DNA from: a virus
DNA: 10,748 nt
Direction: 5' to 3' (one strand)
Virus genome (UHGV): UHGV-0162320
Shown here: positions 2,040 to 5,927 of the stretch, one piece after another
Layout of the letters: each line of letters begins with the position of its first letter
Numbering within the stretch: the first letter of the stretch is position 1
Made by a program: the position numbers and the translations under genes
The notes under the pieces: model-generated
What the model saw: the letters and a program-made list of their open reading frames with translations, nothing else
Told to the model about the DNA's origin: nothing
The model's database searches: none

Positions 2040-2663
2040 CTAACGTTTACGGCGGTAAATACGGTGTTCGATCATTACACCTATGATCTGTAAGTTCATA
2101 TCTGCACTACGAAAAATAGGGTAATCAGGATTTAGGGGGATTAATTCAAAGTCGTCGATGCCGATTCCTAATGGACGGTATTTTTTAAATGTAGCTTCGT
2201 GACCGTCGTTTTTGGCGACAACAAACTCCCCTGGTGCAGGACATAGATCAGGATCGATGATAACAATGTCTCCTTCTTTAAACTCTGGTTGCATGCTGTC
2301 GCCATCGATACGTAATGCGAAGCATGTTTCTGGAATGTCAGAGTCTGCCAAAATATATTCAAATTCCCCTGTCAGATCTGTTATGTCTCTTGCTTCTGTA
2401 AGCTCTCCTGCCTGAACGTAACTTAATATAGGTATGCGTCTGGTACTTATCTCCGCGAGAGGCATAATATTTTTACCGTTCAGTAGCCAGTCTGGGCTAC
2501 ATTTCAAGGCCTTAGCCAGATCCAGAAGATTGCGTGGCTTTCTGGTTCGTCCACTTTCGATGGATTCTATGGATTGTTGGCTAACCCCTGCAGAATTCGC
2601 TACTTCCACTTGAGTCATTCCTAATTCCAAACGACGTGCTTTAAAACGGGCTGCGAGAGACAT
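2040..2663 (-). CDS. CI-like repressor, N-terminal XRE-family HTH plus C-terminal S24 (LexA-like) autopeptidase domain
   Basis: ATG at 2663 (MSLAARFKARRLELGMTQVEVANSAGVSQQSIESIESG...) with AAGGA upstream; Ala-Gly cleavage site in VQAGE, Ser motif GDSM and a downstream Lys (ATFKKY) match the LexA/lambda CI autocleavage architecture. Confidence 0.9.
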   Translation of the reverse strand: MSLAARFKARRLELGMTQVEVANSAGVSQQSIESIESGRTRKPRNLLDLAKALKCSPDWLLNGKNIMPLAEISTRRIPILSYVQAGELTEARDITDLTGEFEYILADSDIPETCFALRIDGDSMQPEFKEGDIVIIDPDLCPAPGEFVVAKNDGHEATFKKYRPLGIGIDDFELIPLNPDYPIFRSADMNLQIIGVMIEHRIYRRKR

Positions 2664-2686
2664 GGGATTAGTCCTTCTGGGTTGTA

Positions 2687-2708
2687 TTAATGTGTATCCC
2701 CACATTAA
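2687..2708. promoter_or_regulatory. operator candidate: perfect inverted repeat TTAATGTG-tatccc-CACATTAA
   Basis: 8-bp perfect arms with 6-bp spacer in the divergent intergenic region between repressor and cro-like genes; direct repeats GTTGTATT at 2681-2688 and 2722-2729 nearby. Confidence 0.5.
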
Positions 2709-2726
2709 AAACAATTTTTGTTGTAT

Positions 2727-2756
2727 TTGACAAACCTCGTTTGTTGTTGCTAAATA
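2727..2756 (+). promoter_or_regulatory. candidate rightward early promoter (PR-like)
   Basis: TTGACA at 2727-2732, 17-18 nt spacer, TGcTAAATA extended -10-like element; about 25 nt upstream of the cro-like start. Confidence 0.4.
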
Positions 2757-2783
2757 CCACTAAAATTGTATGAGGTGAAAGCA

Positions 2784-2996
2784 ATGACCTTAGCGACCCG
2801 AGTAAAAGAACGACGTAAAGAACTCAAAATGACGCAAGTTACGTTGGCTGAGCTCACAGGAGTGAGCCAGCAGGCAATAAACAGAATTGAAAGTGGTGTT
2901 ATTGCTCGGCCACGTTATCTTCTTGAAATGTCTATAGCATTGGATTGCGACCCTAATTGGCTGTTGTATGGCTCACAAAACGATAAAAAGGCTTAA
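2784..2996 (+). CDS. Cro-like XRE-family HTH regulator (70 aa)
   Basis: ATG 2784 with GAGGTG upstream; MTLATRVKERRKELKMTQVTLAELTGVSQQAINRIESG is a classic HTH; divergent from repressor gene; stop 3 nt before primase start. Confidence 0.85.
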   Translation: MTLATRVKERRKELKMTQVTLAELTGVSQQAINRIESGVIARPRYLLEMSIALDCDPNWLLYGSQNDKKA

Positions 2997-2999
2997 CCC

Positions 3000-5192
3000 A
3001 TGTCCGATAGCAAACCATGGGGAGCTACGCCTGATGAGTGGTTTCATTTCGACCTGGTATTGGGGAGAACTGATCATCTTCTCCCAGTTGTATGTAACCC
3101 CAGTGCGACCATATCCCCTGATAGTAAACTGAAAGCGTTGGGTAAGACGCCGAGTCGCTATAACCGGGACCGCCAGGTCACCGGTATTGCTCAATGGACC
3201 GGGCATGTTGTTACTGAGCATGATTTTGCCCGCTGGTCGAATGAACCGGATTATGGCATCTGCGTGCGTACAGGCCATGGCTGGCTGGCGCTGGACTGTG
3301 ATAGCGAAGATGAAGACATTCAGGCAGATATTCGCAAAACGCTTGTGCAACTTCTGGGTGAGTTGCCGCCGCGACGCTGGCGAGCAAACAGTAATAAGTG
3401 TCTGTATCTGCTGGCCGTTGATGGTGATTTCCGTAAGCGTATCCATCGCCTGGCGGGGGATATGGGCATTATCGAGTTGCTGGCGAACGGGCAGCAGTTC
3501 GTTGCCTGCGGTACGCACAGCAGCGGCGCGCGTATTGAATGGGACGGCGGTTTGCCGGATGAACCTCCGGCTATTACTGGTGAGCAGCTTGAAACGCTGT
3601 GGCAGCGCCTGGCTGAACAACTCCCTGTGTCGGTAACCACCGAAGCGGGCAACACGAAGATGCGCGACCGATCAGCATTCACGCCCGGCGCGACGGATGA
3701 TACAGCTGAATATCTTGATGCCAATGGCTGGACGCTGCTGGATGGCGCAAATGGTGAACGATATATCCGCTGTCCGTTTGAAGACGGCCACAGTAGCGGG
3801 GGCGATCCAACAAGCACAGTTTATTTTCCTGCGGGAACCGCGGGCTTTGAGCAGGGGCATTTTAAATGCCTGCATGCCAGTTGTGCGCATCGTGATGACG
3901 GAGATTTCCTTAATGCCATCGGGATCCGCAACGACGATTTCGAAGATCTGACCAGCACCGAAGTGGCGGAACCTTTACCGCTGCCTGCTTTCGAGCGTGA
4001 TAAATGGGGGCGTATCGAGGCAACAATCAGCAACGCAGCCAAAGCAGTAGTACGCCCTGATTTTGTGGACATCGATATTCGCTTTGACCAGTTCCGCGAC
4101 GAAATCATGTTTGCCCCTGCAGGATCCGGACAATGGCGGGCATTCACCGATGCGGATTATGCGCGCCTGCGCATCACGATGGAAAAGCGGGGATTTAAAC
4201 CTGTTGGTCGTGAACTTATTCGCGATGTGGTGTTACTTGCAGCCGATGAACAACCATTCGATTCAGCGATCACTTGGCTGAACGGACTGGAGTGGGATGG
4301 CGTGCCGCGCATCGAATGTTTCTACCATACGCACTTCGGTACCGCCGACACGCCTTATACCCGTGCGGTGTCTATGTACATGTGGACCGCGTTGGCGGGG
4401 CGAGTACTGGAGCCAGGCATCAAAGCGGATATGGTGCCGATCCTCGTTGGTCCGCAGGGCTGCGGTAAGTCTTCCGGAGTGGAGGCACTGAGCCCTGATC
4501 CTGCGTTTTTTACTGAAATCTCTTTTGCCGAAAAAGACGATGATCTCGCTCGAAAAATGCGTGGTCGGCTGGTGGCAGAGATTGGTGAACTGCGCGGACT
4601 TAATACCAAAGAGCTGGAGTCAATCAAAGCGTTTGTGACGCGTACTCACGAAAACTGGATCCCGAAATACCGGGAGTTCGCCACCCAGTTTCCTCGTCGC
4701 CTGGTGTTCGTTGGTACCACCAATGAGGACGAATTCCTTGCGGACAAGACTGGTAACCGTCGCTGGCTCCCCGTGGAAGTGTCGAAAGTCGACGTGAAAG
4801 CGATAAAAAGAGATCTCCTTTTACTTTGGGCTGAGGCTCGTGAGGTGTTTCAGCGTCTGGGGGGTATCCAGTTCCGTGAGGCTGAACAACTGGCAGCGAG
4901 TGTCCATGAACAGTACACCATCAAGGATGCTTGGCTTGAAACGGTAGAGAAATGGCTCGACACGCCAGACCTGATGACTAATGAACTTCCGCGAAATTGC
5001 GAATTTTTACGCGCAAGTGATGTTTTGCGTGATGCGATTGGGCTAAATCCTGACCGCATCGGAAAACGCGAAGAAATGCGAATTAGTAATGTTTTGCAAA
5101 ATTGCGGGTATAAGCGTGCCCAAAGGCGAATTGGGGGGAAAATGACTCGAATTTTTGAGGCGGTGTCCCAACCTGTACCAACCTCAAAATAG
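3000..5192 (+). CDS. replication primase-helicase: AEP-type PrimPol N-domain, zinc-binding segment, VirE/D5-like P-loop NTPase
   Basis: 730-aa ORF; AEP motifs LALDCDSED and CGTHSSG; Cys/His cluster CPFEDGH...CLHASCAH; Walker A GPQGCGKSS and Walker B-like RLVFVGTTNE. Confidence 0.9.
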   Translation: MSDSKPWGATPDEWFHFDLVLGRTDHLLPVVCNPSATISPDSKLKALGKTPSRYNRDRQVTGIAQWTGHVVTEHDFARWSNEPDYGICVRTGHGWLALDCDSEDEDIQADIRKTLVQLLGELPPRRWRANSNKCLYLLAVDGDFRKRIHRLAGDMGIIELLANGQQFVACGTHSSGARIEWDGGLPDEPPAITGEQLETLWQRLAEQLPVSVTTEAGNTKMRDRSAFTPGATDDTAEYLDANGWTLLDGANGERYIRCPFEDGHSSGGDPTSTVYFPAGTAGFEQGHFKCLHASCAHRDDGDFLNAIGIRNDDFEDLTSTEVAEPLPLPAFERDKWGRIEATISNAAKAVVRPDFVDIDIRFDQFRDEIMFAPAGSGQWRAFTDADYARLRITMEKRGFKPVGRELIRDVVLLAADEQPFDSAITWLNGLEWDGVPRIECFYHTHFGTADTPYTRAVSMYMWTALAGRVLEPGIKADMVPILVGPQGCGKSSGVEALSPDPAFFTEISFAEKDDDLARKMRGRLVAEIGELRGLNTKELESIKAFVTRTHENWIPKYREFATQFPRRLVFVGTTNEDEFLADKTGNRRWLPVEVSKVDVKAIKRDLLLLWAEAREVFQRLGGIQFREAEQLAASVHEQYTIKDAWLETVEKWLDTPDLMTNELPRNCEFLRASDVLRDAIGLNPDRIGKREEMRISNVLQNCGYKRAQRRIGGKMTRIFEAVSQPVPTSK

Positions 5193-5346
5193 AGGTTGGT
5201 ACATTTTAACTAATTGAATTTAAAGGCCAGTACCAACTGTACCATCTGTACCAACCTAATTACTAAGAACCCCATATATATATATAAGTCGCTTGGGGAA
5301 AAGGTTTGAAAAGAGCTGGTACAGGTGGGTACAGGTTGGTACAGGC
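5174..5346. repeat. iteron-type replication origin: 12-bp inverted iteron pair, three direct 9-bp GTACCA iterons, (TA)n unwinding element, three inverted GGTACAGG iterons
   Basis: TGTACCAACCTC (5174-5185) and GAGGTTGGTACA (5192-5203); GTACCAACT/GTACCATCT/GTACCAACC at 5230-5256; catatatatatataag at 5273-5288; GGTACAGGT x2 and GGTACAGGC at 5318-5346. Confidence 0.6.
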
Positions 5347-5400
5347 CGAACAAGGAATTTTTTGCACATAACAGCGTGTAATAAGCGAATCGGAACTGCG

Positions 5401-5409
5401 TTATCCACA
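5401..5409 (+). promoter_or_regulatory. consensus DnaA box TTATCCACA
   Basis: Exact 9-mer match to the DnaA box consensus, with a partial inverted GGATAA 8 nt downstream; lies 55 bp beyond the iterons. Confidence 0.35.
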
Positions 5410-5473
5410 CCCACGGATAAACAAACGTGGTTCTCAGAAAATTTTTTCGTAGCAAAACGTAGAGGTCAGAGCT

Positions 5474-5896
5474 ATGCGTAATATTCAACAGGTTTTAGAG
5501 CGCTGGGGTGGCTGGGCAGCGAGTGAAGGTGGTAGTGTCTACTTTCCTCCTGTTGCAGCCGGGTTTAAGAATCTGCTACCCGCGACGCAGTCTGGAAGGC
5601 TGAAATGCAGTGACAATGACGGTCTTATCATCAACTCCGCTATGAGCTGCCTGAAGAAAAAAGATCCGTATCTGTGCACGCTCCTTGAGTGGCATTACGT
5701 CCAGGCCATGCCCGTGCGGGCGATGGGTGAGAAGCTCGGCGTATCTCACACCCACGTTCTGAAGAGGCTTCAGGCGGCAGAGGGATTTATTGACGGTTGC
5801 TTAGCCATGCTGGATGTGGTGCTCGAAATGGATCAGTCGGTTCAGTCAAAGCCTCAGGCTATCAGGACTTTGCGTAGGAGCTGCTCGGCGGCATAA
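5474..5896 (+). CDS. late-gene antiterminator, Q family (QuuD-like)
   Basis: ATG 5474 with GAGG upstream; MRNIQQVLERWGGWAA...VAAGFKNL...LKRLQAAEGFIDGCLAMLDVVLEMD parallels my recollection of E. coli DLP12 QuuD (MRDIQMVLERWGAWAA...AAGFKGL...). Confidence 0.75.
   Translation: MRNIQQVLERWGGWAASEGGSVYFPPVAAGFKNLLPATQSGRLKCSDNDGLIINSAMSCLKKKDPYLCTLLEWHYVQAMPVRAMGEKLGVSHTHVLKRLQAAEGFIDGCLAMLDVVLEMDQSVQSKPQAIRTLRRSCSAA
5869..5896 (+). promoter_or_regulatory. candidate late promoter (pR'-like) overlapping the 3' end of the Q gene
   Basis: TTGCGT (5869-5874), 16-nt spacer, CATAAT (5891-5896); lambdoid phages place pR' directly downstream of Q. Confidence 0.35.
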
Positions 5897-5927
5897 TATC
5901 CAGCAATCAATCACGTAAGGGAACCAG

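Follow-up and report, generated by a model that had tools for sequence, protein, structure and literature searches.

The window analysed here is a stretch of 10,748 nucleotides from the viral genome UHGV-0162320, and a prophage in the chromosome of Escherichia coli BH100N contains the identical sequence. Its plus strand carries an open reading frame for a 730-aa protein, hereafter called the initiator, in which a primase and a helicase are joined. The intergenic region between this gene and the following gene, which encodes a Q-family antiterminator, is 281 bp long. Short repeats (iterons) start within the last codons of the initiator gene and continue into this intergenic region, and the subject of the present analysis is this repeat region as a candidate replication origin of the phage. 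Its features are listed below, with positions counted from the first letter of the window.

3000-5192, plus strand: initiator gene (730 aa), an open reading frame with Prim-Pol (AEP), VapE/superfamily 3 (SF3) helicase and predicted C-terminal winged-helix parts.
4989-5162, plus strand: part of the gene that encodes the predicted C-terminal winged-helix domain (aa ~664-721).
5064-5102: third helix of that domain, the putative recognition helix (aa 689-701), nearly invariant.
5109-5162: predicted beta-hairpin wing (aa 704-721), the variable part.
5164-5203: iteron set 1, two direct copies and one inverted copy ('++-') around the TAG stop codon; the set encodes the last residues of the protein.
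5164-5172: degenerate direct copy of set 1, TGTCCCAAC, inside the coding sequence.
5174-5182: direct copy of set 1, TGTACCAAC.
5195-5203: inverted copy of set 1.
5229-5255, plus strand: iteron set 2, three direct copies with a 9-bp period, AGTACCAAC (5229-5237), TGTACCATC (5238-5246) and TGTACCAAC (5247-5255); period and position are kept in relatives with other 9-mers.
5256-5314: central spacer, putative DNA unwinding element, with (TA)6 at 5275-5286 flanked by CCCC and GGGG.
5315-5323, 5325-5333 and 5335-5343, minus strand: iteron set 3, three inverted copies with a 10-bp period, which read TGTACCAGC, TGTACCCAC and TGTACCAAC on the minus strand.
5358-5366, plus strand: TTTTTTGCA block, just right of the inverted array.
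5401-5409, plus strand: exact DnaA-box consensus TTATCCACA (9/9), occurring once in the window and probably not a conserved part of the origin.

Within positions 5164-5343, nine copies of the 9-mer TGTACCAAC were detected when one mismatch was allowed; chance would provide about 0.2 exact matches in the whole window. The core TGTACCANC had 7 matches in the window against 0.21 expected, a number that none of 200 shuffled sequences reached, and six of these seven were inside 5174-5343. In locus L001, an identical prophage stretch of 21.2 kb, 9 of the 12 matches with up to one mismatch fell within 180 bp, and there was no second cluster. A preliminary description of this DNA had listed a perfect 12-bp inverted iteron pair across the primase stop codon, three direct 9-bp iterons, a (TA)6 tract, three inverted iterons and an exact DnaA box, and each of these was found at the positions given above. 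The inverted pair consists of TGTACCAACCTC (5174-5185) and GAGGTTGGTACA (5192-5203), with a loop of 6 nt, and the TAG stop codon at 5190-5192 straddles the loop and the second arm. The degenerate direct copy TGTCCCAAC at 5164-5172 is an addition to that list.

Iteron DNA supplies the codons for the last nine residues of the initiator, VSQPVPTSK (window 5163-5192). The stop codon of relatives was located before, within or after set 1, and the tail of the protein varied with the iteron type, as for example EPLEPRGTT in the TGGAACCAC type. This variation of the tail is a by-product of the position of the stop codon relative to set 1.

The same region was compared among related loci. The initiator homologues of the E. 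coli B379 prophage and of Yersinia phage YeP4 were 91% and 73% identical to the window protein, and downstream of both genes the layout was as in the window, with the repeats CTAGACCACCT and CTAGACAACCT in place of CTGTACCAACCT. Besides these two, 86 further loci were fetched, and 300 bp around each stop codon were scanned; most relatives came from viral contigs and six loci from genome contigs (scan patterns from the N-terminus of the protein). About 85 related loci had the pattern '++- +++ (TA)n ---' at constant offsets from the stop codon, with two or three inverted copies at the position of set 3; they belong to E. coli, Yersinia phage YeP4, Trabulsiella, Pluralibacter and Pectobacterium or are on viral contigs. 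The sequence of the repeat was different from locus to locus. At least 12 different 9-mers were recorded, among them TGTACCAAC, TGTCCCAAC, TGGAACCAC, TGTAACCAC, TAGACCACC and TAGACAACC, and the copies within a locus changed together. Across relatives, iteron positions 1, 2, 6, 8 and 9 were conserved, whereas positions 3-5 and 7 varied. Four distant loci (L007, L008, L087 and L088), with 39-51% identity over aa 1-700, had kept the layout with unrelated 9-mers.

The joint change of eight or nine copies, located on both strands around a spacer that stays fixed, implies that one sequence-specific DNA-binding factor reads all of them. RNA structure or chance as the cause of the concerted change was ruled out by the change on both strands with a fixed spacer. 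In two of the distant loci, Xenorhabdus bakwenae (L007) and Izhakiella capsodis (L008), a more symmetric arrangement '++- ++ -- +--' was found about 0-260 nt past the stop codon; this arrangement has one more iteron set, right of the inverted array, which the family of the window lacks. An origin was not annotated at this site in any of the records examined, and the origin of this phage group was not described in any paper that literature searches found.

The spacer between the arrays was the best conserved non-coding segment. Among 69 distinct relatives its majority-base frequency was 0.87 (92-100% in the TA tract), compared with 0.72-0.74 for the iteron arrays and 0.61 for the codons of the wing. 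Between the direct and inverted arrays of all relatives but one, TA or AT was repeated 3-9 times, and the surroundings of the TA tract were almost unchanged between the window and B379. The segment 5257-5287 was the fourth least stable 31-mer of the window (-30.1 kcal/mol; mean -42.2, sd 3.5). To the right of the inverted array, the TTTTTTGCA block was 97-100% conserved in 69 sequences. With its flanks (5349-5369) it was invariant or near-invariant in all aligned relatives whatever the downstream module, and it read TTTATTGCAGGT in lineages without Q. A site of priming or loading, or else a promoter element, would be conceivable for the block, although no promoter consensus was found there; it is possibly a part of the origin.

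The domain content of the initiator was established from profile searches. Pfam assigned aa 427-639 to the VapE-like family PF05272 (E 2.3e-60) and aa 53-184 to Prim-Pol PF09250 (E 3.6e-10, 41 bits against a cutoff of 22.8), and the PHROG families matched by the protein were those of DNA helicase/primase and DNA primase. The only solved relative by sequence was PDB 7pds_A, the SaPI Rep helicase (aa 393-657, E 8e-34). None of the plasmid Rep families in Pfam was matched. Neither was a Pfam family identified in the last 100 residues, and the winged-helix assignment is for this reason taken from the structure model only. In this AlphaFold2 model of aa 571-730, built with 23 sequences, the mean confidence score (pLDDT) was 73.6, with 80-87 over aa 664-721, and the C-terminus consisted of three helices followed by a beta hairpin, from which a C-terminal winged helix is predicted.

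The type of 9-mer followed the last ~20-30 residues of the adjacent protein and not the remainder. A common C-terminal stretch, ...NVLQNCGYKRxQRRxxGK, precedes a variable tail, and the tails MTRIFE, KMRIFE and KCKVWE were associated with TGTACCAAC, TGTCCCAAC and TGGAACCAC, respectively. Similarly, VQRVW or VLKVW was found with TGTAACCAC or TGTATCCAC, QIRVW with TAGACCACC and QQR(V/I)F with TAGACAACC. Over aa 1-700, the proteins of loci L013 and L015 showed no difference from the window protein (100% identity), and after GGK they continued with KCKVWE, where the window has MTRIFE; their iteron was TGGAACCAC, and the tail of the L015-type protein was KCKVWEPLEPRGTT. The converse was seen in locus L074, whose protein was just 77% identical to the window protein, yet both had GKMTRIFE and the same iteron.

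Mantel correlations between iteron distance and protein distance, calculated by protein segment for 72 non-identical loci, were distributed as follows.

aa 1-320: 0.18
aa 321-640: 0.16
aa 641-700: 0.46
aa 701-715: 0.68
aa 716-722: 0.58

The nearly invariant helix and the variable hairpin of the modelled domain may have their counterparts in the conserved and the variable positions of the iteron, a correspondence that we infer. Somewhat doubtful, though worth considering, is the further proposal that the wing and its approximately nine iterons form a small, fast-switching specificity cassette, with at least ten specificities on one backbone and an almost invariant (TA)n core. If this were so, private replication specificities would seem to have been selected for where relatives co-infect or where resident prophages or satellites able to hijack the replicon are present. 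Independently of that proposal, the natural matched variants of wing and iteron are a data set for site reading by winged helices and for orthogonal replicons.

Comparable origins are known from mobile elements that replicate by a Rep helicase. In the Staphylococcus aureus pathogenicity islands (SaPI), the iterons lie directly downstream of rep, an AT-rich centre has at least two oppositely pointing iterons on each side, and the C-terminal winged-helix domain of Rep binds the iterons (PMC9371898, PMC7581432). The SaPI Reps do not need an accessory loader (PMC9371898). In the phage-inducible chromosomal islands (PICI) of E. coli, two sets of iterons flank an AT-rich region, and EcCICFT073's pri-rep-ori segment drives plasmid maintenance (PMC6092414). 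Binding and melting of the cognate ori by the initiator and autonomous replication have been proven for SaPI1/5 and EcCICFT073 (PMC9371898, PMC6092414).

The window resembles the SaPI in several respects. The helicase part of its initiator is homologous to the Rep in 7pds, AEP primase and helicase form one fused protein, as they do in SaPI5 (PriRep5), and the predicted C-terminal winged helix is the proposed reader of the iterons. The iterons begin at the end of the open reading frame, all nine within 5164-5343, a placement kept in about 85 relatives. An AT-rich centre between oppositely pointing iterons is likewise shared, with 6-12 iterons (PMC9371898, PMC7581432). On the other hand, the host of the window phage is Gram-negative, the element is a complete temperate phage that encodes a DNA polymerase of its own and is not a satellite, and the iterons have 9 bp compared with 5-6 bp in the SaPI. 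The extra '++-' set that overlaps the stop codon and forms a perfect hairpin, and the strictly conserved (TA)n tract in the spacer, also distinguish the window from the SaPI. With the E. coli PICI, likened here by layout, the window shares the host species and, as in EcCICFT073, an AT-rich region that lies downstream of pri-rep between two sets of iterons (PMC6092414). The PICI, however, is a satellite without structural genes, whereas the window belongs to a full prophage.

By this analogy, and from the arrangement of the repeats, positions 5164-5343 are very probably the replication origin of the phage, of the self-loading-helicase type found in SaPI and PICI. The view that this is an initiator-dependent iteron origin with a (TA)n unwinding element, cognate to the PrimPol-helicase, already put forward in the preliminary description, gains from the layout in about 85 loci, the concerted 9-mers, the tracking of the C-terminus, the domains and the SaPI/PICI layout; the inclusion of the DnaA box in it was not supported. 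Nor is 'textbook layout', which implies a plasmid-type Rep/DnaA origin, an apt expression, the better comparator being the self-loading-helicase Rep of SaPI and PICI. The initiator of the window, a 730-aa fusion of PrimPol and SF3 helicase, differs from the small DnaB-recruiting Rep of plasmid Rep/DnaA origins (pSC101, RK2, P1 oriR), and a DnaA box is not a conserved part in the family of the window.

The evolution of events at such an origin, with binding, melting, helicase loading and replication all drawn by analogy from SaPI and PICI, may be depicted as follows: The winged helix would read the 9-bp iterons, its conserved helix contacting the conserved positions of T-G-n-n-n-C-n-(A/C)-C and its variable beta-hairpin wing the variable central positions. 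The two opposed arrays, with three copies per side, would position hexamers of the helicase at both flanks of the (TA)6 spacer. The spacer would then melt, and the helicases would encircle single strands and move apart. Priming would be performed by the PrimPol domain of the 730-aa protein, and the primers would be extended by the PolA-type polymerase that the phage itself encodes upstream. Set 1, across the stop codon, would add binding sites and in the window phage may also weaken read-through towards Q. An origin would in this way be placed for a widespread group of enterobacterial prophages, unannotated in the records examined, and the self-loading PrimPol-helicase replicon known from satellites would, by the same analogy, also run complete temperate phages.

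Other replicons share parts of this organisation. The alpha protein of satellite phage P4 combines a primase, an SF3-type helicase and a C-terminal origin-binding domain in one polypeptide and uses short iterons in both orientations; its primase is DnaG/Toprim-like, and P4 needs two separated cis elements, ori and crr. The initiator of the window also joins a primase, an SF3-type helicase and a predicted C-terminal iteron-reading domain, but its primase is of the AEP type and not DnaG/Toprim-like as in P4 alpha, and the phage has one iteron cluster, with no crr-like second cluster in the 21.2 kb of L001 and the window that were scanned. P4 alpha with its cognate ori site has been mentioned together with the E. 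coli PICI (PMC6092414). In the staphylococcal cassette chromosome SCCmec, Cch2 is a helicase similar to the SaPI5 Rep; direct repeats lie a short way downstream of its gene and are bound by its C-terminal domain (PMC7581432). The repeats of the window are likewise just downstream of the helicase gene; the Cch2 site differs in having only three iterons, a separate and unusual primase protein and an origin that is putative in vivo.

The position within the operon is that of the origin of phage lambda. The lambda ori is an iteron array beside an AT-rich region, in or at the end of the initiator gene, in the rightward early operon between cro and Q, and the repeats and AT-rich region of the window are also at the end of the initiator gene between cro and Q. 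Lambda O, however, is an origin binder only and recruits the host DnaB through P, whereas the window initiator is itself helicase and primase, and O and P genes are absent.

An alternative is a DnaA-assisted iteron origin of the plasmid type, in which host DnaA at 5401-5409 would co-operate with the phage initiator in opening or in the recruitment of DnaB. The exact 9/9 TTATCCACA box is 57 bp to the right of the last iteron, and it is kept in many close E. coli prophages, for example those of H10407, 13E0780 and 14EC029. Such a box by itself is only mildly unlikely, since about 0.08 exact matches are expected by chance in 10.7 kb on both strands, and it forms the left half of TTATCC-N8-GGATAA. 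In most relatives, however, the box was absent (up to one mismatch) within 600 bp of the stop codon. Loci L025-L030, L040, L052 and L081 have the iteron and the (TA)n spacer of the window with a different downstream module and no DnaA box. Where the segment upstream of Q was shared, the box read TTATCCACA, TTATCCACG, TTATTCACG or TTACCTATG, whereas the adjacent CCCACGGA was invariant, and the flanks of the box were better conserved than the box itself. As the box is absent or degenerate in most relatives, including those with the same iteron, it is probably not part of the conserved origin. In addition, helicase and primase are both part of the initiator itself, the phage brings a polymerase of its own, and the SaPI Reps work without an accessory loader (PMC9371898). 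A need for DnaA is not obvious with an initiator that is itself a helicase, and the plasmid-type alternative is accordingly regarded as improbable; a local, accessory role of the box in the window phage is possible. A lone exact DnaA box should hence be taken as part of an origin with caution, and not without comparative support.

The segment 5385-5448 contains the box within TTATCC-N8-GGATAA, followed by the invariant CCCACGGA and by the conserved AAAATTTTTTCGTAGCAAAACGTAGAGGTCAGAGCT leader before the start codon of Q. It was found in 104 E. coli genomes, at a single place in each, and in the four of four that were fetched it was between the VapE gene and the Q gene.

Several observations weigh against the self-loading-helicase origin or against the pairing of wing and iteron. 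The codons of the wing are less than 200 bp from the iterons, and their association could in part be linkage in recombining cassettes. In some variants, the window included, the last residues of the protein are encoded in the iteron DNA itself; in loci L062 and L074, though, the stop codon precedes the first copy, so that the association does not require an iteron-encoded tail. In principle, the arrays could have another role, in autoregulation or as a transcription roadblock before Q, and the hairpin at the stop codon agrees with the terminator consensus in the window phage.

This hairpin (5174-5203) has a perfect stem of 12 bp with 6 G-C pairs and a loop of 6 nt, followed by TTTTAA, and was the only terminator-like match in 4900-5700. 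As RNA its folding energy was -20.5 kcal/mol (z -7.0). In lambda, tR terminators are located upstream of Q. The hairpin might therefore be mainly an intrinsic terminator or attenuator between the early operon and Q, with the other repeats being secondary, and Q probably depends on read-through since no promoter-like site is present between the hairpin and Q. A run of T (at least 5 T in the 8 nt past the stem) was nevertheless found in just 9 of 64 distinct relatives, and was missing past the stem in the TGGAACCAC, TAGACCACC and several TAGACAACC types. Point changes interrupted the stem in several close relatives while the iteron motif was kept. Moreover, the stem is always made of the iteron of its own locus, of which there are six further copies on both strands at distances of up to 150 bp, and this a terminator does not explain. 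A main role as terminator is thus unlikely, and from the comparison of the loci the conserved thing at the stop codon is the iteron motif and not a terminator. A secondary attenuating role of the hairpin before Q is possible in the window phage because of the lack of a promoter-like site between them.

The arrays might also be operator or regulatory sites, for autoregulation of the primase-helicase or control of Q, or a site of partition, packaging or recombination. Short repeats in both orientations do occur at operators, centromere-like sites and integrase arm sites, and transcription from the cro-primase operon can reach Q only through the arrays. An easily melted and conserved (TA)n core between opposed arrays is, by contrast, a feature of origins, and the homologous SaPI and PICI systems with such a layout are proven origins (PMC9371898, PMC6092414), which makes this reading very improbable. 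As candidates of this kind, an operator of the repressor or Cro was rejected by the absence of the 9-mer from the cI-cro control region, attP by the internal and uninterrupted position of the site in integrated prophages, a partition site by the lack of partition genes nearby, and a packaging site by the distance of 3 kb to the terminase genes. Occupied iterons together with the stop-codon hairpin may possibly gate read-through into Q, and late gene expression would in that case be coupled to replication.

The genes surrounding the initiator gene in the window are given below.

2040-2714, minus strand: LexA/S24-type repressor gene.
2766-2996: gene for a Cro-like helix-turn-helix protein.
5474-5896: Q-family antiterminator gene.

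To the right of Q follow the lysis genes (holin and endolysin), then terminase, portal, head and other structural genes. Upstream of the repressor in the same prophage (L001 1-8000), on the opposite strand, are genes for a PolA-type DNA polymerase, DUF2815, DUF2800, Nmad5 and VRR-NUC, and the module also contains an S-adenosylmethionine (SAM) methyltransferase and a cytosine methyltransferase for modification. The element is thus not a satellite but a complete temperate phage that has replication enzymes of its own. With its structural, lysis and DNA polymerase genes it is a full prophage and not a PICI, and only the type of replicon is shared.

Of 5,426 complete E. coli genomes, 145 matched the module from primase to Q (window 2700-5900), among them enterotoxigenic E. 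coli H10407 and several Shiga toxin-producing strains, and 76 of these 145 held at least 80% of it. The boundary of the module in the E. coli genomes was to the right of the repeats. Matches that covered the Q gene alone began at approximately window 5414-5449, and the repeats therefore travel with the primase gene. In Klebsiella pneumoniae, two proteins annotated as antitermination protein Q (P0015 and P0032; PF06323) aligned, over 31-69% of the query, with the C-terminal part of the primase-helicase at 83-90% identity. In some Klebsiella prophages the origin region may accordingly be spanned by fused or truncated genes or by genes with mis-called starts.

GC skew was monotonic over the region and followed the direction of transcription, and is uninformative on the origin. 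A promoter scan of 4900-5700 revealed no sigma-70-like site in the origin region or before Q. An Rfam scan of 5000-5600 (E up to 1) identified no known RNA family in the intergenic region; its sole match, c4-a1b1 (targets of C4 antisense RNA), was at 5539-5579 on the plus strand inside Q and, with 16.3 bits against a gathering threshold of 46.7, is probably due to chance. Finally, a low-G+C island (0.35) was identified at 8850-9150, downstream of the lysis genes, which contained the three least stable 31-mers of the window and may be a moron or a regulatory region.

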